From: Escherichia phage vB_EcoM_WFL6982 | Direction: 5' to 3' (one strand) | Length of the DNA stretch: 64,000 nucleotides | Sequence record: MK373774.1 | Part shown: piece by piece, positions 2,192-40,149 of the stretch | Position numbering within the stretch: position 1 is the stretch's first letter | Layout: every line of letters starts with the position of its first letter | Program-made: the position numbers and the translations under genes | The notes under the pieces: model-generated | The model's input: only the letters and a program-made list of their open reading frames with translations | Database searches by the model: none | Told to the model about the DNA's origin: nothing

Positions 2192-3154
2192 TTATTTCCA
2201 AGTCAGTTCGCAGGTCAGTTGAAGAAGCATATACATAACGTGTAATTCAATATTACTAGCTAGTCCATGAAACTTATTATTTTCGCCTGCAATTTCATAA
2301 AGCGAAATAATACTTTTACCAGGTGCAACTTTGTCATAACACTCGGAAACTAATTTATCGATGAACCATGAATAATCTGCAGCGTATTTTGGAGCTAATG
2401 CACGAAGCTGTTTGATATCTTTATTTTTCATTGCTTCTATGACATCATCTACCGTGCCACGATCATTGGTTACAATCGACAAAATACCTGCATCAAGAAC
2501 ACCTTTAGACGAGTACTGGTCTAATTGACCAATTGTACGTCGAAAGTCCGGGAAGTTCTTTTTAACCAGAGCTGCAACAACTTTCATATCAGCGATTTCG
2601 ATATTTTCGTTCTTACAGATTTCAACCATGCGATGAATCATTTTCTTCATCATTGAGATTTTATCTTCTTCGGTTGGACGTCCGAATTCGATAACTCGAC
2701 AACGACTACGTAACGGTTCGATAATTCCATCGATGTTGTTGGCAGTAATAATAATAGAACAGTTACTAGAGAATTCTTCCATGAATGTACGAAGGTGACG
2801 TTGTGATTCGGCGAGGCCACTACGGTCAAATTCATCAATAACAATAACTTTAGGCTTGCCTTCCATTGAGACTGAACGAGCGAATGCAGTTAACGGACCA
2901 CGCACAAAATCAATCTTACAATCAGAACCGTTGACGAACATCATTTCGGCATTGATATCATTACATAATGCTTTTGCTACGGTTGTTTTACCGGTACCAG
3001 GAGATGGAGAGTGTAAAATAATATGAGGAAGTTTTCCTTTAGATACTAAAGACTTGAATGTTTCATGGTCATACGCAGGCAGAATACATTCGTCAATGGA
3101 AGAAGGACGATATTTCTGTTCTAGAATGTGTTCTTTGTAATTGATAGTAATCAT
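2192..3154 (-). CDS. 44: Clamp loader large subunit gp44 (AAA+ ATPase)
   Basis: 320 aa; Walker [11 protein letters not shown], Walker B VIVIDEFD; T4 gp44-like throughout. Confidence 0.95.
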
Positions 3155-30543: not shown

Positions 30544-30715
30544 ATTATTTCTCTTAAGGTTTGGACCATTCCGTGGCACATGTTAGGTCCTTCGACTCGC
30601 TATGTAAACCCATTACCGCATTGCGCTCGACCTTATTACAGGTTGGAAAAGGTACATCACTCAGAGGACTCGACGTTCATGAGGAGAGGTTGCGTTTCCC
30701 TTTATTAGGCAAGAA

Positions 30716-31045
30716 TTATACTCTAGGCTTTTGAGCTTGTTTGGTATTGGATTCCCATGCGGCTTTGGTAATTTTGTTAGCGGCATAACCAAAGGCATTA
30801 GATAGAACACCTTTAGAGTTGAATACATCCAATCCAATAAGTACACCGGCTGTGTTAAATTTAGGAGCAAAGTACGCATTAGTTTTAGAAAGAACTTTTT
30901 TCAATTCAGGGTCTTGAACCAAGCCATCAAAAACGCCTTTACTATTTACTTTGTATGTTACTTTGGGATTTTTACCTTCTTCGATAGCAGCTTTCTGTTC
31001 CGCAGATAATGTAACTTCAGTGATAAACTCCTGATATGTTTTCAT
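30716..31045 (-). CDS. Internal protein (capsid-targeted, IPII/IPIII-like)
   Basis: N-terminus MKTYQEFITEV matches the T4 capsid targeting sequence; small, Lys-rich. Confidence 0.6.
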   Translation of the reverse strand: MKTYQEFITEVTLSAEQKAAIEEGKNPKVTYKVNSKGVFDGLVQDPELKKVLSKTNAYFAPKFNTAGVLIGLDVFNSKGVLSNAFGYAANKITKAAWESNTKQAQKPRV

Positions 31046-31075
31046 TTTTGTTTCCTTGTTTGTTTTGATAGAGTA

Positions 31076-31105
31076 ATTATACCATATTAATACTTAAGCG
31101 TAAAC
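31076..31105 (-). promoter_or_regulatory. T4 early-type promoter (GTTTAC, 18 bp, TATAAT)
   Basis: Minus strand GTTTACGCTTAAGTATTAATATGG-TATAAT-TACTCTATCAAAAC upstream of the internal protein gene. Approximate coordinates. Confidence 0.5.
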
Positions 31106-31108
31106 AAT

Positions 31109-31363
31109 TTAAGCTTTACCGCCAGAAATAATTCCGAAGTTGTTAAAATCATATCCAATATCGTCAACATCTACTTTAGGACTTGCTACAACATAAGCAA
31201 TTTCACTACGTTTTGCATAGGTGTTGATTTCTTTACCATCGCCACCTAAGAAAGAATACCCATTACGTTTTAATGAGCCAAAGTCTTCCGCATCACCAAT
31301 GAAAGCTTTAACTTTAAATTTGGGGTCTTTGGCATCTGCTTCAATGATAAATTCTTGATACAT
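31109..31363 (-). CDS. Internal protein-like (CTS-like N-terminus)
   Basis: N-terminus MYQEFIIEA resembles the capsid targeting sequence; 84 aa. Confidence 0.45.
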   Translation of the reverse strand: MYQEFIIEADAKDPKFKVKAFIGDAEDFGSLKRNGYSFLGGDGKEINTYAKRSEIAYVVASPKVDVDDIGYDFNNFGIISGGKA

Positions 31364-31375
31364 TTTCGTTTTTCC

Positions 31376-31789
31376 TTAGTAAATTGATTTACCATAGTAT
31401 TTGTACCAAGTCGGACGTTGAGCAATTTTTTCATCTAAGCGTGCTTGACTTATCGCAATGGACGCTTCGGACGGGACGTAATTATTACGAAATTCGGCAG
31501 GGATGTCGGAAATATCCTGGACAGTCGTGTCCTTGATTTTGAAACCACGTTTCAAGCATTCAGCGATTAGCTCGTTTTGACGTAAACGTAAAAATTCGAG
31601 TTTGTCGTAAAAGAATGTTACGTGACCTGTGCCTAAGATAAATGTTGGAGAGATTTTAAAATCCTTTACACGTTTACCGTTTTGAACATGTTTACGGACT
31701 GCACCAAATACGCGTGGTAATTCACGATACTCAGCCATAAGATGTTGGTCGGCCAGTTCAGAAACAAGTGTTAAATTGATACGGGTCAT
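31376..31789 (-). CDS. denV: Endonuclease V (pyrimidine dimer DNA glycosylase)
   Basis: From internal [70 protein letters not shown]..., near-identical to T4 endonuclease V. Confidence 0.95.
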
Positions 31790-31847
31790 AATTTCCTCCA
31801 AGTAGTTGATGAATGTATAGTATCAAAACCCTTGGAGGAAGTAAACA

Positions 31848-32129
31848 CTATTTTTCTGAAGCGCCTGAAATATATTTTTCAAGACGTTGTTTCATCAGCG
31901 AGCCGTTCTTAGCGATTTCTTCTGGTTTATCGCACATACGCAACAAGGCTTCAAGCTTAGCGATATCGCTGGTACGTTCAAATTTGCGAGTATCTATCTT
32001 ACTAGCAAGTTCAGAAATACGTGCTAATAGACTTTCAGCTTCAACCAAAGCTGCACCTAGCTTAGTTGCAAATGTGTCAGTAGCTTCGTTAAGAATAGAT
32101 TCTGATAAAAATTCACTATATGTTTTCAT
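31848..32129 (-). CDS. Internal protein (capsid-targeted)
   Basis: From internal [19 protein letters not shown]... (CTS-like); overlaps the lysozyme stop. Confidence 0.5.
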
Positions 32130-32614
32130 ATATACGCTTTCCAAGTTCCTGTTTTAAATGTTGAGATTACGCGTTTCGCGCGATTAGGTGTCTGACGATA
32201 CCATTTAGATTGGGCTAGATTTACTGCCGCTTCATCCCAACGTTTCTGTTGAAGCATACGAAGAGAATTAGTAAAACCGGCGACTCCTGCTACACCCATT
32301 TGGAAGACCATATTGACCAATGCACACCGACGAACTGCATCTAAAGAATCATATACCGGTTTAAGTTTAGCATTACCCAAGATTCCGCGGACGGCTTTAT
32401 CAACGTCTTCATTAAATAGCTTTTCAGCCTCATCAAGGGTAATTGTACCGTTGCATTTACGACCGATCATTCTGTCAAGTTCAGCTTTAGCTACGGCTAA
32501 AGACGGGTTCTTTGTTACTAAATGGCCTATGCCAATAGTCCAAAAGCCTTCGGTGTCTTTGTATAAAGTCAGTCTAAGACCTTCGTCATTACGAAGCATT
32601 TCAAATATATTCAT
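32126..32614 (-). CDS. e: Lysozyme (endolysin e)
   Basis: From internal [82 protein letters not shown]...; unmistakably T4 lysozyme. Confidence 0.97.
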
Positions 32615-34444: not shown

Positions 34445-34642
34445 TTAGCAAGAATAACTAGATGATACCCAGCCTTGAACAGTGATACTATTGTGGGATA
34501 ATGAGATCGCGTCCTGGAGATTCAGACCTGCGTTATCTTCAATCCATAATGTAACTTCTTCGCGTTCTTCTGTTGCAATTTGGAACAGGTTTTCCAGAGC
34601 AGCTACTGTCGTACGTACAGCACAATCTAATTCACGAGACAT
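34445..34642 (-). CDS. Small protein, member 3 of the WVxSSxxC family (65 aa)
   Basis: Ends ...ITVQGWVSSSYSC; AAGGAAACAAT-ATG ribosome-site spacing shared with the two upstream paralogs. Confidence 0.5.
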   Translation of the reverse strand: MSRELDCAVRTTVAALENLFQIATEEREEVTLWIEDNAGLNLQDAISLSHNSITVQGWVSSSYSC

Positions 34643-34651
34643 ATTGTTTCC

Positions 34652-34924
34652 TTAGCAAGTGTGAGAAGATGCGACCCAACCACCAGTTTCGAGGCTCAGG
34701 TTGTAGTCGTATTGGTAAACGTCAGCCCATTCAGCATAGCCGTTTTTTGTACAACGTTCAAGATCGGCTTTAAGATGTCCGGGTGAATGATAGGTTCCAC
34801 CCATACCATAAGCTGGATACAAGACGAATGTTGTGTTTTGTTTATCAGCAATTTCTTTGGCAGCCTCAATAGCTGCATAAATTTTTGCTACAGCTTCAGC
34901 CAGTTCGGTTTGTTCTTTAGACAT
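34652..34924 (-). CDS. Small protein, member 2 of the WVxSSxxC family (90 aa)
   Basis: Ends ...ETGGWVASSHTC; shares a YGxGxTYxxPG block with member 1. Confidence 0.5.
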   Translation of the reverse strand: MSKEQTELAEAVAKIYAAIEAAKEIADKQNTTFVLYPAYGMGGTYHSPGHLKADLERCTKNGYAEWADVYQYDYNLSLETGGWVASSHTC

Positions 34925-34933
34925 AATGATTCC

Positions 34934-35239
34934 TTAGCACAACGCAGAAGACGAAACCCAAGCACCTTCAGTAATAACGTAACCATTACCTTCACGCTTA
35001 ACATCGCCACCATTATTTTCAATTTCATCTTTCATCCACTGGGATACGATTTCACCCTTAGGATAATAAGTACGACCGCTACCATAATCACCTACAGAAA
35101 ATGATACGGCATATTGGTCTGCGATCTTTGTTGCTTCTTCTTCGATACGTTCAGCTTGATTCAGAAGTTTATAAATTGCATCTGAAGCGGATTTGGCATC
35201 ATTAAACTCTGGTACTTTAATTTCAATAATCTTACTCAT
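34934..35239 (-). CDS. Small protein, member 1 of the WVxSSxxC family (101 aa)
   Basis: Ends ...TEGAWVSSSALC; start overlaps the upstream membrane ORF stop. Confidence 0.5.
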   Translation of the reverse strand: MSKIIEIKVPEFNDAKSASDAIYKLLNQAERIEEEATKIADQYAVSFSVGDYGSGRTYYPKGEIVSQWMKDEIENNGGDVKREGNGYVITEGAWVSSSALC

Positions 35240-36270: not shown

Positions 36271-36666
36271 TTATTTTGACATATCATCAATTTGCTCTCG
36301 ACGCCGACGCCATAGATTAATCGCTTCATTAACACATTCGGCGTTTGGTATATGACGGCAATAATATAATGATTCGCGTTTCTGGAACCGATGTTGCAAC
36401 GGGATTTCGTTTAAAAGGTCTTTACGGTCAAAGTATTCAAAACTAGTTAACCCAGAACGATTTTTAAGAAACTTCCAATGTCCGAATTCATTTTGAAAAT
36501 AGACATAATCAGCATGCTGATACAGCGAATTAATTAACCTATCGGAAATAACTGTTTCACGTTCGTTAAAATAAAATGTTAAGTCATGAACTACCAGATA
36601 AATATTGCCTTTCATATTTTCCTCACTTAAAGTTGGTGCCTCTAGAAAGATTTGAACTCTCACCAT
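36271..36666 (-). CDS. Hypothetical protein (131 aa)
   Basis: Track ORF; start may be the internal ATG (MKGNIYLVVHDL...). Confidence 0.45.
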   Translation of the reverse strand: MVRVQIFLEAPTLSEENMKGNIYLVVHDLTFYFNERETVISDRLINSLYQHADYVYFQNEFGHWKFLKNRSGLTSFEYFDRKDLLNEIPLQHRFQKRESLYYCRHIPNAECVNEAINLWRRRREQIDDMSK

Positions 36667-36694
36667 TAACCTTAGAATGATTATATGCTATCCA

Positions 36695-37366
36695 TTACAC
36701 TATAGAGGCAATTAAATTATTTACAATATCTTCTTTATAAACTTCAGCATAATGAAGTTCATATATTTCCCATCCTAATGATTTTATAATATCATGGCGT
36801 TCTTTATAATAAGGGGCCAAAATCTTTTTCTTAGGATTGGAGTAATGTTGGTTTCCATTAACTTCAATAATAATCTTTTTATCTATTAAAGCAATATCCG
36901 TGCAATACGCTCGGTTTTTAACCGGTTGGTATTCTTCAATAAATGAAATTCCATTTTCTATTAATTTAGATTTCAAAAATTCACAAGGCACAGATTTAAA
37001 TTTTGTATTTTTCTTCCAAGGATGTTTATCGGGGTTTTCATTCAACCATTTTTTCCGAGCATTAGATATTTTTATTCTAGCTTCCTCAGAGTGTTCTCTA
37101 CCTAATGAAGCGGCTGACAATTTTTGTCTAGTCTCTTCCGAAATTACTACAGGAACACCAGTCTTTTTAGATACAACATACTGGTTTAAATTACCTGAAG
37201 CTATACGTGCTTTATTCATTGCTGCAATGGCTGATTTAGAACTTTCTTTATACAATTCCAATTTAGGGTTGGATTTACACCATCTAGTGTGGTTAGCCAT
37301 CCATCCTTTAGGTTTATTAGAAATATCAAATTCCATATTACAATGTTTACAAATGCTCATTACCAA
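36695..37366 (-). CDS. Putative endonuclease: N-terminal zinc ribbon plus C-terminal DUF559/Vsr-like nuclease domain
   Basis: N-terminal CKHC...HTRWC; C-terminal DIALIDKKIIIEVNGNQHY...RHDIIKSLGWEIYEL fits the D...EhxG.QH...R...GW pattern of DUF559-type nucleases. Lies next to the tRNA genes. Confidence 0.45.
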   Translation of the reverse strand: MVMSICKHCNMEFDISNKPKGWMANHTRWCKSNPKLELYKESSKSAIAAMNKARIASGNLNQYVVSKKTGVPVVISEETRQKLSAASLGREHSEEARIKISNARKKWLNENPDKHPWKKNTKFKSVPCEFLKSKLIENGISFIEEYQPVKNRAYCTDIALIDKKIIIEVNGNQHYSNPKKKILAPYYKERHDIIKSLGWEIYELHYAEVYKEDIVNNLIASIV

Positions 37367-37434: not shown

Positions 37435-37506
37435 CTGGCGCACTTGGACTCGAACCAAGATAAAGGAGTTAACAGCTCCCCGTAATAACCTTTATACGAT
37501 GCACCA
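37435..37506 (-). tRNA. tRNA-Asn (anticodon GTT)
   Basis: Hand-folded cloverleaf: acceptor TGGTGCA/TGCGCCA, anticodon stem GGGAG/CTCCT with loop CTGTTAA, T-arm CTTGG-TTCGAGT-CCAAG; no encoded CCA. Approximate coordinates. Confidence 0.7.
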
Positions 37507-37512
37507 TTTGTT

Positions 37513-37587
37513 TGGTGACCCTGGCTGGTTTCGATCCAGCTACCTATCAGTTATGAGCTGACAGCTCTCCCATTGAGCTACAGGGCC
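37513..37587 (-). tRNA. tRNA with CAT anticodon (Met, or Ile if lysidine-modified)
   Basis: Hand-folded: acceptor GGCCCTG/CAGGGTC, D-arm GCTC-AATGGGA-GAGC, anticodon stem GTCAG/CTGAT with loop CTCATAA, T-arm GCTGG-ATCGAAA-CCAGC, encoded CCA. Approximate coordinates. Confidence 0.75.
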
Positions 37588-39098: not shown

Positions 39099-39386
39099 TT
39101 ACAGAAGAGTTTTTGCAATAATTTTAAGCTGAGCTACAGAAATATGCTTAGCTTTAAACAGTGCAGTCTCTTCGGCCGGAGAGATAACAATAGTAGCGCC
39201 GTCTTTCTTAGCAGACCATCCATCCCCTAAGTAAACAGTACCTTTTACTTCTTCGCCGTCAACCAGGCTAATCATTGGTTTACCCTCACGTCCTTTATTT
39301 GCTTTAATAACTTCGGAAGTAAGGGTTGCTTCGGTCAGAGTAGAAACGTTAGCAAAAGGTGATATAAATTCTTTATAGGATTTCAT
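39099..39386 (-). CDS. Internal protein (capsid-targeted, IPI-like position)
   Basis: N-terminus MKSYKEFISPFANVSTLTEATLTSE (CTS-like); 95 aa; adjacent to 57B as ipI is in T4. Confidence 0.55.
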   Translation of the reverse strand: MKSYKEFISPFANVSTLTEATLTSEVIKANKGREGKPMISLVDGEEVKGTVYLGDGWSAKKDGATIVISPAEETALFKAKHISVAQLKIIAKTLL

Positions 39387-39420
39387 TTTATTTCCTTGAG
39401 GTTATTTATTTGATAGGATG

Positions 39421-39450
39421 ATAGTATCACACCATCATCCTTATGTAAAC
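39421..39450 (-). promoter_or_regulatory. T4 early-type promoter (GTTTAC, 18 bp, TACTAT) with GGATGA/TCATCC arms
   Basis: Minus strand GTTTACATAA-GGATGATGG-TGTGATACTA-TCATCCTATCA upstream of the ipI-like gene. Approximate coordinates. Confidence 0.5.
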
Positions 39451-39463
39451 TGTTTTGTGAAAA

Positions 39464-40149
<686 letters not shown>

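Follow-up and report, generated by a model that had tools for sequence, protein, structure and literature searches.

Four small open reading frames (ORFs) in the window, the 64,000-nucleotide stretch of coliphage DNA analysed here, probably encode T-even internal proteins (Ip class) and occupy the two ip loci already known to be hyperplastic, e-denV-vs.8 and 57B-tRNA, in a Mosigvirus. Escherichia phage vB_EcoM_WFK (Mosigvirus; hereafter WFK) matches the whole window at 100% identity and is ~98% identical to RB69; the source phage is an RB69-like coliphage of this genus. Injected anti-restriction cargo of the Ip type is a real and already well-described class, and the concept is not new; the general idea is said to have been in print since 1994. 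A sequence-only reading of this DNA had described the four ORFs as a fast-evolving injected anti-restriction cargo, in agreement with the published view (PMC3012670, PMC12373910), in which T-even Ips are diverse defence proteins with the capsid targeting sequence (CTS) alone in common (PMC3012670).

Tagged ORFs and the packaging machinery

A six-frame scan of the window yielded 664 ATG-initiated readings of at least 40 aa, exactly four of which begin with a CTS-like sequence, against a chance expectation of 0.03 on average (100 shuffled windows). These are ipA (30716-31045), ipB (31109-31363), ipC (31848-32129) and ipI (39099-39386), the same ORFs, with the same N-termini, to which the sequence-only reading had assigned the T4 CTS or a close variant; all are encoded on the minus strand, a detail absent from that reading, and all four proteins are small (8-10.7 kDa). 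Residues 4 and 7 of the CTS serve targeting and residues 8 and 10 processing, with gp21 cleaving after L/I-x-E (PMC9026906). A protease site after the CTS-like segment, on which the earlier proposal had staked its case, is present in every one of the four proteins as a gp21-type L/I-x-E motif at the tag end, namely ITE10 in ipA, IIE8 in ipB, LSE10 (plus LNE15) in ipC and LTE19 in ipI. Among 69 CTS ORFs from denV-anchored loci, collected with a search pattern that did not set positions 8 and 10, position 8 is I, L or M without exception (69/69) and position 10 is E in 67. The prohead core proteins gp21, gp22, gp67 and gp68 are encoded in the source genome outside the window (WFK 99751-101899), with matches to Peptidase_S77 (gp21; 3e-107), T4_CASP (2e-89) and GP67 (3e-20), and gp21 is ~89% identical to Tequatrovirus gp21.

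Past the tag the bodies are mutually unrelated, as had been proposed: BLASTP similarity is limited to the first ~10-25 residues, and hhalign comparisons among eight families of bodies stripped of their tags gave probabilities of at most 4.5%, which rules out remote homology among the bodies. Together with named reference proteins, the bodies from denV-anchored loci fall into 17 unrelated families. The proteins also differ in predicted charge, mature ipA (pI 9.7) and mature IPI (IPI*; pI 9.0) being basic and mature ipB (pI 5.2) and ipC (pI 6.3) acidic to neutral, the latter two in contrast to T4 IPI-III, whose classical biochemical picture is of small, basic, abundant and DNA-binding proteins (PMC9026906). 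A PDB sequence search with ipA, ipB and ipC gave no match, nor did an NCBIfam profile search. Because homologue collection for structure prediction returned near-identical sequences only, no deep alignments were available; more distant homologues came from tblastn of phage records and, for ipA, from an exhaustive search that added one cluster. The resulting models of ipA and ipC gave no functional clue: the single-sequence model of ipA is unusable (pLDDT 49), and the single-sequence AF2 model of ipC consists of three generic helices (pLDDT 72, pTM 0.36). Literature searches turned up neither a Mosigvirus virion proteome nor N-terminal sequences of Mosigvirus Ips, and gave no matches for the RB69 ORF names; ip genes are not discussed in Petrov 2010.

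The IPI ortholog, the Ip5 homologue and the ipA family

The 95-aa product of ipI (39099-39386, minus strand) is, by its sequence, an ortholog of T4 IPI. Its tag begins MKSYKEFIS, and cleavage at LTE19 would release a propeptide of 19 residues (MKSYKEFISPFANVSTLTE) and leave a mature IPI* of 76 aa. The protein matches the Pfam profile IPI_T4 (PF11634) with an E-value of 1.4e-50 and 169.6 bits (cut-off 25), residues 20-95 corresponding to profile positions 1-76, and PDB 2JUB (76 aa) aligns to the same residues (E 6e-42), beginning exactly past LTE19. It is 87% identical to T4 IPI and 97.9% identical to RB69 IpI, and is named 'putative nuclease inhibitor' in the WFK record. The sequence-only reading had placed this gene beside Acb1, and the neighbour indeed matches Pfam Acb1 (7e-59); this 57B/Acb1 gene (39464-39919, minus strand), encoding an anti-CBASS phosphodiesterase, is a conserved upstream neighbour that marks the second ip locus, the T4 order being 57B-ipI. 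An early-type promoter-like site (39415-39450, minus strand) has its GTTTAC 64 nt upstream of the ipI ATG, an arrangement that mirrors T4 ipI. Like T4 IPI, ipI has a 19-residue propeptide and an x-T-E cut and adjoins 57B/Acb1, and the mature parts (76 aa) differ by four substitutions; the propeptides, however, are distinct (MKSYKEFISPFANVSTLTE in ipI, MKTFKEFTSTTTPVSTITE in T4 IPI), and the DNA sugar is arabinose in the phage of ipI but glucose in T4. RB69 IPI has been reported to protect RB69 from GmrSD (PMC6024577), and by analogy with this near-identical protein ipI would be a GmrSD inhibitor.

The 93-aa protein encoded by ipC (31848-32129, minus strand) is, on the strength of its alignments, a homologue of Ip5. 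It shares 47.6% identity over 84 aa with T2/RB32 Ip5 (tblastn, E 2e-15), the reciprocal Ip5 match in the window scores 3.8e-20, and ipC matches PHROG 3499 'internal head protein' at 2e-46; the RB32 record reads 'Ip5 similar to RB69ORF127c', and RefSeq names RB69p127 'internal head protein'. The ATG of ipC overlaps the stop codon of the lysozyme gene e (ATGA). Its 10-residue tag is canonical, with candidate cuts after E10 (LSE) and E15 (LNE), and the extra internal L/I-x-E motifs LVE30 and ISE40 are possible cut sites. Like the Ip5 of T2, T6, RB32 and related Tequatroviruses, ipC has a CTS, is small and is predicted to be helical. Ip5 adjoins 57B, but ipC lies between denV and e, at the alternative ip locus, and is translationally coupled to e; its tag, with E at position 10, is of the short kind seen in IPII and IPIII, whereas the propeptide of RB32 Ip5 is longer and IPI-like (MKTFKEFATKTTITE). 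Members of the Ip5 and Ip7 families are found at one ip locus in some phages and at the other in others. Repoila et al. in 1994 reportedly described a polymorphic ipI locus with an Ip4-Ip13 series that includes Ip5. No homologue of Ip7, Ip9, Ip4, IPII or IPIII was found in the window by tblastn.

Going by the labels of its records, ipA is the only family among the four that still has no internal-protein label in databases. The gene (30716-31045, minus strand) encodes 109 aa with a canonical tag, MKTYQEFITE, and a predicted cut after E10 (ITE) that would yield a mature protein of 99 aa. Of the 90 phage records in which it occurs, not one calls it an internal protein: nearly all carry the label 'hypothetical protein', a few are unannotated and one reads 'RNA polymerase ADP-ribosylase'; the matching PHROG 3966 (7e-32) is likewise described as 'unknown function'. 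An exhaustive search recovered two genuine clusters among 1.84 billion representatives. The range of ipA is confined to Mosigvirus and Dhakavirus-type phages, and its only distant relative, WG01 ORF115 (36% identity), keeps the tag MKTYQQFITES. Upstream of ipA lies a T4-early-type promoter-like site (31076-31104, minus strand; GTTTACG-17-TATAAT with TG, 10/12 in a consensus scan), whose sequence is identical to the promoter ahead of RB69 ORF124c. The GC-richer spacer of 172 nt downstream of ipA (30544-30715) was considered as a structured RNA or gene remnant and rejected (fold z-score +1.39; no Rfam match at E<=1).

The denV locus and cassette exchange

Apart from ipI, the tagged genes are grouped around denV (31376-31789, minus strand), which encodes endonuclease V, a pyrimidine-dimer glycosylase (Pfam Pyr_excise 1e-14; PHROG 1183 1e-62), and is annotated in both WFK and RB69. 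denV is a conserved anchor between two ip cassette slots and is itself not cargo. The gene order here is e - ip - denV - ip - ip - vs.8, with one ip gene upstream and two downstream of denV, whereas T4 has both upstream (e - ipIII - ipII - denV - vs.8). The placing of denV between ip genes, which the sequence-only reading had singled out, is confirmed for this phage but is not unusual, being common in non-Tequatrovirus relatives. We compared 37 Tevenvirinae-like denV loci, i.e., the window and 36 IMG/VR loci, and in 31 of them one to four CTS genes flank denV on one or both sides; the arrangement is therefore normal outside T4 itself. All CTS ORFs are co-oriented with denV, and no CTS ORF was found near denV in distant denV loci (0/44). 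In WG01, CGG4-1, UPEC01, PhAPEC2, RB32 and 30 IMG/VR loci these slots are filled by other ip cassettes.

The denV cluster has in common with T4 IPII and IPIII the e-denV locus, the 10-residue CTS and I-x-E cut, the early-type promoter architecture and the size class of IPII. The bodies of ipA, ipB and ipC, however, have no homology to T4 IPI, IPII or IPIII; the alignment to these proteins suggested earlier bears out kinship for ipI and not for these three. The GTTTAC architecture stands 57-83 nt upstream of T4 ipI, ipII, ipIII and denV and of ipI and denV in the window. No perfect late promoter (TATAAATA) is present near the ip genes of the window; since T4's own ip genes likewise have none within the 130 nt upstream, this result is uninformative.

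The CTS-coding DNA is itself repeated. In the denV cluster, the three 30-mers that encode the CTS form the top direct-repeat family in the region (D1, 73-80% identity), with copy 1 in ipA (31016-31045), copy 2 in ipB (31340-31369; 80% identity to copy 1) and copy 3 in ipC (32100-32129; 73% identity to copy 1), all on the minus strand. Copy 1 contains a recombination junction: upstream of about ATGAAAAC the sequence corresponds to the RB69 125c-124c spacer, and downstream of it to RB69 ORF123c. RB69 has 42-nt repeats at spacings of 324 and 341 bp, and the 341-bp cassette holding ORF124c is absent here, the crossover lying inside the CTS-coding repeat. We propose that cassettes would be exchanged in this way, the shared Shine-Dalgarno (SD) and CTS-coding sequence acting as a portable recombination site. 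Such an arrangement resembles anti-CRISPR and anti-defence hotspots, where unrelated small proteins are swapped in a fixed slot between conserved genes, an analogy drawn explicitly in PMC12373910. Unlike in those hotspots, the cassettes here share an N-terminal tag whose coding DNA is itself the recombination site, and because the shared tag is functional the inhibitor would be pre-loaded in the virion and not expressed after entry.

Proposed role of the internal proteins

By analogy with T4, the CTS of about 10 residues would bind the gp22/gp67/gp68 scaffolding core, and the protein would therefore be built into the prohead; the gp21 protease would then cut past L/I-x-E at the tag end, and the mature Ip of 8-11 kDa would remain alongside the DNA in the head until the next infection, when it would be injected and would neutralise a host enzyme that cuts the incoming sugar-modified DNA. 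For IPI*, presence in the virion in processed form is supported by the T4/RB69 literature and by PDB 2JUB; from their tags we infer that ipA, ipB and ipC would each be packaged. A comparable fate is described for the ejection proteins of phiKZ-like and SPN3US-like giant phages, which are head-internal, cut by a gp21-related protease past a short x-x-E and ejected (PMC9026906); those proteins, however, use the motif S/A-x-E, are much larger, have no MKTYQEFI-type tag and are not homologous to these Ips.

As to what the injected proteins would act on, the earlier statement that the targets are unknown is outdated for the T4 paradigm, in which the target of IPI is known and those of Ip2 and Ip3 were found in 2025. 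Each of T4 Ip1, Ip2 and Ip3 blocks a different GmrSD enzyme (PMC12373910), IPII/IPIII (Ip2/Ip3) being inhibitors of the ECOR21 and ECOR17 GmrSD variants. Given this precedent, ipA, ipB and ipC most likely have an anti-restriction role, directed at further GmrSD variants or at different enzymes able to recognise DNA with arabinosylated cytosine. Mosigvirus DNA carries arabinosyl-5-hydroxycytosine, an arabosyl-type modification and not glucosyl-hmC (PMC13390438, PMC13326640), and this arabinosylated DNA is cleaved by enzymes of the GmrSD family (PMC6024577, PMC13390438).

It is possible, though less probable, that ipA, ipB and ipC are packaged and injected but have targets beyond the GmrSD-family type IV enzymes, candidates being nucleases of other kinds that recognise arabinosylated or hypermodified DNA, BREX-like systems, further first-response defences, or functions of the host. 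The arabosyl-type modification itself would fit such targets, as would the restriction of the ipA family to Mosigvirus and Dhakavirus-type phages and the mutually unrelated body folds. When Silas et al. tried ten ip genes against five additional GmrSD systems, no new pairing emerged, which leaves the generalisation that all Ips target GmrSD unproven. However, all three T4 Ips with known targets inhibit GmrSD variants, arabinosylated DNA is open to GmrSD-family enzymes and IPI is kept in RB69, and the Ip5 family is also present in glucosylating Tequatroviruses.

The condition of ipB raises the further question of whether every copy works. ipB (31109-31363, minus strand) encodes 84 aa with a truncated tag, MYQEFIIE, and a predicted cut after E8 (IIE). 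It matches PHROG 2667 'internal head protein' (3e-19), occurs in 217 phage records and is 98% identical to RB69ORF125c, which RefSeq names 'internal head protein'. The start read earlier, MYQEFIIEA, is present but is a derived form: DNA alignment places an ACG (31367-31369, minus strand) at the ancestral start, which is ATG in RB69 and PhAPEC2 (MKMYQEF...; MKMYQEFIIEA in RB69), and the tag therefore has no Met-Lys here. A 76-mer of the ACG region matches 173 records, the only full-length 100% match being WFK itself. Relatives of ipB in other genera have the canonical starts MKTYQEFITES or MKTYEEFITES. PhAPEC2 has an internally deleted ipB of 38 aa, and database relatives show internal deletions and frameshifts; together with the lost ATG, these argue that ipB may be decaying, and the loss of its ancestral start may entail weak expression or poor targeting. 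RB69's own Ip5-like gene, moreover, has a CTS scrambled by a compensated frameshift. Nevertheless, we consider it unlikely that one or more copies, ipB especially, are non-functional remnants, whose tag DNA would persist only as a recombination scar and whose product would be either not made or not loaded: the ipB ORF is intact over its 84 aa, its in-frame ATG lies 9 nt past an AAGGA Shine-Dalgarno-like motif, its tag is partly canonical in retaining Y, E, F and I-x-E, many Mosigviruses share its body at 93-100% identity, and ipA and ipC have canonical tags.

That some of the proteins are mainly structural or assembly parts of the prohead core, or DNA-condensing counter-ions with no anti-defence role, is highly improbable: a T4 IPIII mutant does assemble heads at half the rate with more polyheads, T4 Ips are abundant, basic and DNA-binding (PMC9026906) and mature ipA is basic, but close relatives readily gain, lose and replace cassettes, neither ipB nor ipC is basic, and T4 IPIII, the paradigm of this role, is a GmrSD inhibitor in the cytoplasm without its CTS.

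We offer as a rather doubtful suggestion that the ipA family, and possibly ipB, could be injected inhibitors of a defence that specifically senses arabinosyl-5-hydroxycytosine DNA, whether a GmrSD subtype or another nuclease class. Mosigviruses differ from T4-type phages in their DNA sugar, arabinose, and in an Ip set that is partly different. If the suggestion is true, the repertoire of arabinosylating phages has diversified against other host enzymes than that of the glucosylating T-evens. The window is in any case a clean natural example of repertoire turnover, in which a cassette was lost or gained by recombination within the tag-coding repeat. Host immunity meets the injected internal proteins before any other phage molecule, and Mosigviruses, which are isolated widely, are under consideration for therapy; once ipA, ipB and the Ip5-like protein were matched to their targets, the map of inhibitors and enzymes would grow and host range would be easier to predict.

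Four tagged genes and the head machinery

The 2.2-kb internal-protein (ip) region of the window is 100% identical to that of vB_EcoM_WFK (MK373775.1; Mosigvirus, sewage, Germany), in which 32001-96000 is the counterpart of the window, and ~98% identical to RB69 and many RB69-like phages. The ip genes, denV (31376-31789) and the neighbours discussed here all lie on the minus strand. A six-frame scan of all ATG-initiated readings with 40 codons or more (664 in the window) yielded a start resembling the T4 capsid-targeting sequence (CTS) in exactly four, against a mean of 0.03 expected by chance (100 shuffled windows), and these are the ORFs, with the N-termini, that the sequence-only reading had described: ipA (30716-31045), ipB (31109-31363), ipC (31848-32129) and ipI (39099-39386). 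In the DNA, the three 30-mers that encode the tags around denV make up the strongest direct-repeat family of the region. In T4, targeting depends on tag residues 4 and 7 and processing on residues 8 and 10, and the prohead protease gp21 cuts after L/I-x-E (PMC9026906). This motif closes the tag in all four proteins (ITE10 in ipA, IIE8 in ipB, LSE10 and LNE15 in ipC, LTE19 in ipI), and the protease site expected behind a CTS-like segment is present throughout. The gp67, gp68, gp21 and gp22 genes lie in the WFK genome just beyond the window, gp21 matching Peptidase_S77 (3e-107) and the gp22 scaffold matching T4_CASP (2e-89). Since these prohead core genes are present and gp21 is ~89% identical to Tequatrovirus proteases, the T4 rules likely apply to this phage too. 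BLASTP likeness among the four proteins, and to T4 IPI, IPII and IPIII, does not extend past the first 10-25 residues, and profile-profile comparison of eight tag-removed body families gave a probability of at most 4.5%, bearing out the claim that the bodies are unrelated to one another.

Family relations of the four proteins

By homology, ipI is an ortholog of T4 internal protein I, with 87% identity to T4 IPI and 97.9% to RB69 IpI. Its residues 20-95 match Pfam IPI_T4 (1.4e-50) and align with the 76-residue chain of PDB 2JUB, so the solved mature protein starts exactly after the predicted cut. Upstream lies 57B/Acb1 (Pfam 7e-59), confirming the Acb1 neighbour proposed earlier and matching the T4 order, in which 57B also adjoins ipI upstream. 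The literature on T4 and RB69 IPI has established that this kind of protein is packaged, processed and injected and inhibits GmrSD, and RB69 IPI is reported to prevent GmrSD restriction of RB69 (PMC6024577). The window holds only three tRNA genes (36637-36709, 37435-37506 and 37516-37587, minus), whereas T4 has eight; a 223-aa ORF between them (36695-37366, minus), which shares a few bases at its 3' end with the first tRNA, has a weak homing-endonuclease PHROG match (1.6e-5) and calls to mind segB, which lies within the tRNA cluster of T4. Three tandem small ORFs (34445-34642, 34652-34924 and 34934-35239, minus; 65, 90 and 101 aa) share a C-terminal motif (...GWVSSSYSC, ...GWVASSHTC and ...AWVSSSALC), have matches in PHROGs 4882 and 899 (each 'unknown function'), and appear to be paralogs forming a small family whose C-terminal Cys is conserved.

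ipC can be assigned to the Ip5 family: it is ~48% identical to T2 and RB32 Ip5 and matches PHROG 3499 'internal head protein' (2e-46), the RB32 GenBank note describes Ip5 as similar to RB69ORF127c, and the RB69 ortholog is annotated as an internal head protein in RefSeq. The ipC ATG and the stop codon of lysozyme gene e overlap (ATGA, 32126-32129), which implies that the two are translationally coupled, whereas 87 nt with a promoter separate e and ipIII in T4. RB69 ORF127c (2072-2353 of the RB69 locus extract L001, compared with window 32060-32160) has a divergent N-terminus, MKTYMNFYQNLS..., in which tag residues 5-12 are scrambled by a compensated -1/+1 frameshift, a 1-nt deletion followed by a 1-nt insertion 21 nt downstream; the Ip5-like tag is intact in the window, WFK and PhAPEC2. 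Possibly the protein from this RB69 copy is not packaged; alternatively, the RB69 record may contain sequencing errors.

ipB, which starts 12 nt past the denV stop, matches PHROG 2667 'internal head protein', is present in ~217 phage records and is 98% identical to RB69ORF125c, likewise an internal head protein in RefSeq. Where RB69 and PhAPEC2 keep the ancestral ATG start of this gene (MKMYQEF...), the window has ACG; translation must therefore begin at the next in-frame ATG, 9 nt downstream of an AAGGA motif, yielding a tag without Met-Lys. Among 173 records, the 76-mer at this start has a full-length identical match in WFK alone. Among family members from other phages and from metagenomes, including PhAPEC2 (2995-3111 of its locus extract, L007) and proteins P0005, P0006, P0009 and P0011, there are internal deletions (forms of 38 and 65 aa) or frameshifts, which suggests that the family is dispensable and repeatedly decaying in some lineages.

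ipA is the only one of the four without database recognition as an internal protein: it matches PHROG 3966, 'unknown function', and none of 90 matching phage records carries an internal-protein label. When 1.84 billion representatives were searched exhaustively with phmmer, just two clusters proved genuine: one is the Mosigvirus form, the other a Dhakavirus-type form of 119 aa. The distant homologue WG01 ORF115, at 36% identity, still begins MKTYQQFITE-S, good evidence that function constrains the tag in the ipA family as well. Between ipA and vs.8 lies a 172-nt non-coding stretch (30544-30715, minus), visibly GC-richer than its surroundings, whereas just 26 nt separate denV and vs.8 in T4; it has no significant RNA structure (z +1.39), no Rfam match and a weak promoter-like site for vs.8 (TTTACA-17-TAACAT).

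Cassette exchange around denV

A survey anchored on denV retrieved 80 IMG/VR loci, 36 of which form with the window a set of 37 Tevenvirinae-like loci. In 31 of these, one to four CTS ORFs occur on one or both sides of denV, always co-oriented with it; the 44 distant denV loci contain none. Although the search pattern left positions 8 and 10 unconstrained, all 69 MK-initiated CTS ORFs have I, L or M at position 8, and 67 have E at position 10. The 70 locus proteins and named reference Ips group into 17 unrelated body families. WG01, CGG4-1, UPEC01, PhAPEC2 and RB69 each carry a different cassette mix before and after denV, and the cassettes in annotated genomes are IpIII-like, Ip4-like, ORF124c-like and others. 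The earlier remark that denV sits between ip genes thus holds for the window but marks no special feature, since the survey and annotated genomes make this arrangement the norm outside Tequatrovirus. The ip families also move between the two ip loci; Ip5 and Ip7 adjoin 57B in RB32 and denV in other phages.

RB69 carries an additional CTS gene, ORF124c, between its ipB and ipA orthologs, and its segments coding for Shine-Dalgarno and CTS form direct repeats of 42 nt at spacings of 324 and 341 bp. The stretch of the window that begins at the end of ipB, takes in the promoter and Shine-Dalgarno and runs up to ATGAAAAC is identical to the RB69 spacer before ORF124c; beyond ATGAAAAC the window matches RB69 ORF123c. 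The 341-bp cassette difference therefore amounts to one recombination event with its crossover inside the tag-coding repeat, and as a result ipA lies behind the early-type promoter (predicted, GTTTACG-17-TATAAT) that precedes ORF124c in RB69. Like T4 ipI, ipII, ipIII and denV, the ipA, ipI and denV genes of the window have predicted T4-early-type GTTTAC...TATAAT promoters ~60 nt upstream; no perfect late promoter was found near the window ip genes, and T4 ip genes likewise lack one in the upstream 130 nt. ORF124c itself (L001 3156-3428, 90 aa) appears C-terminally truncated relative to a 104-aa Gaprivervirus homologue (UPEC01 extract L006, 2667-2981), and past its stop the DNA has kept a resemblance to the sequence that encodes the homologue's C-terminus (...GNKLYDA...).

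Function and likely targets

The tag, cut site, machinery, locus membership, family relations and recombination junction can all be read at the sequence level. From these we infer that ipA, ipB and ipC are packaged and injected; more tentatively, they may counter restriction, by the precedent of T4 Ip1, Ip2 and Ip3, each of which blocks a different GmrSD variant (PMC12373910). The authors of that study propose that all proteins of both Ip loci target GmrSD variants, but the ten ip genes that they tried against five further GmrSD systems yielded no new pairs (PMC12373910). Descriptions of the ip class, its hyperplastic loci and the logic of a shared tag go back to Repoila et al. 1994 (cited in PMC3012670 and PMC12373910). 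Database annotation already recognises ipI, ipC and ipB, three of the four genes, and the ipA family is newly added to a known class; the reading of the window is correct, yet ordinary to a specialist. According to the literature, Mosigvirus DNA is arabinosylated and is cut by GmrSD-family enzymes, so the selective pressure exists, and the ip targets of arabinosylated phages may differ from those of glucosylating phages.
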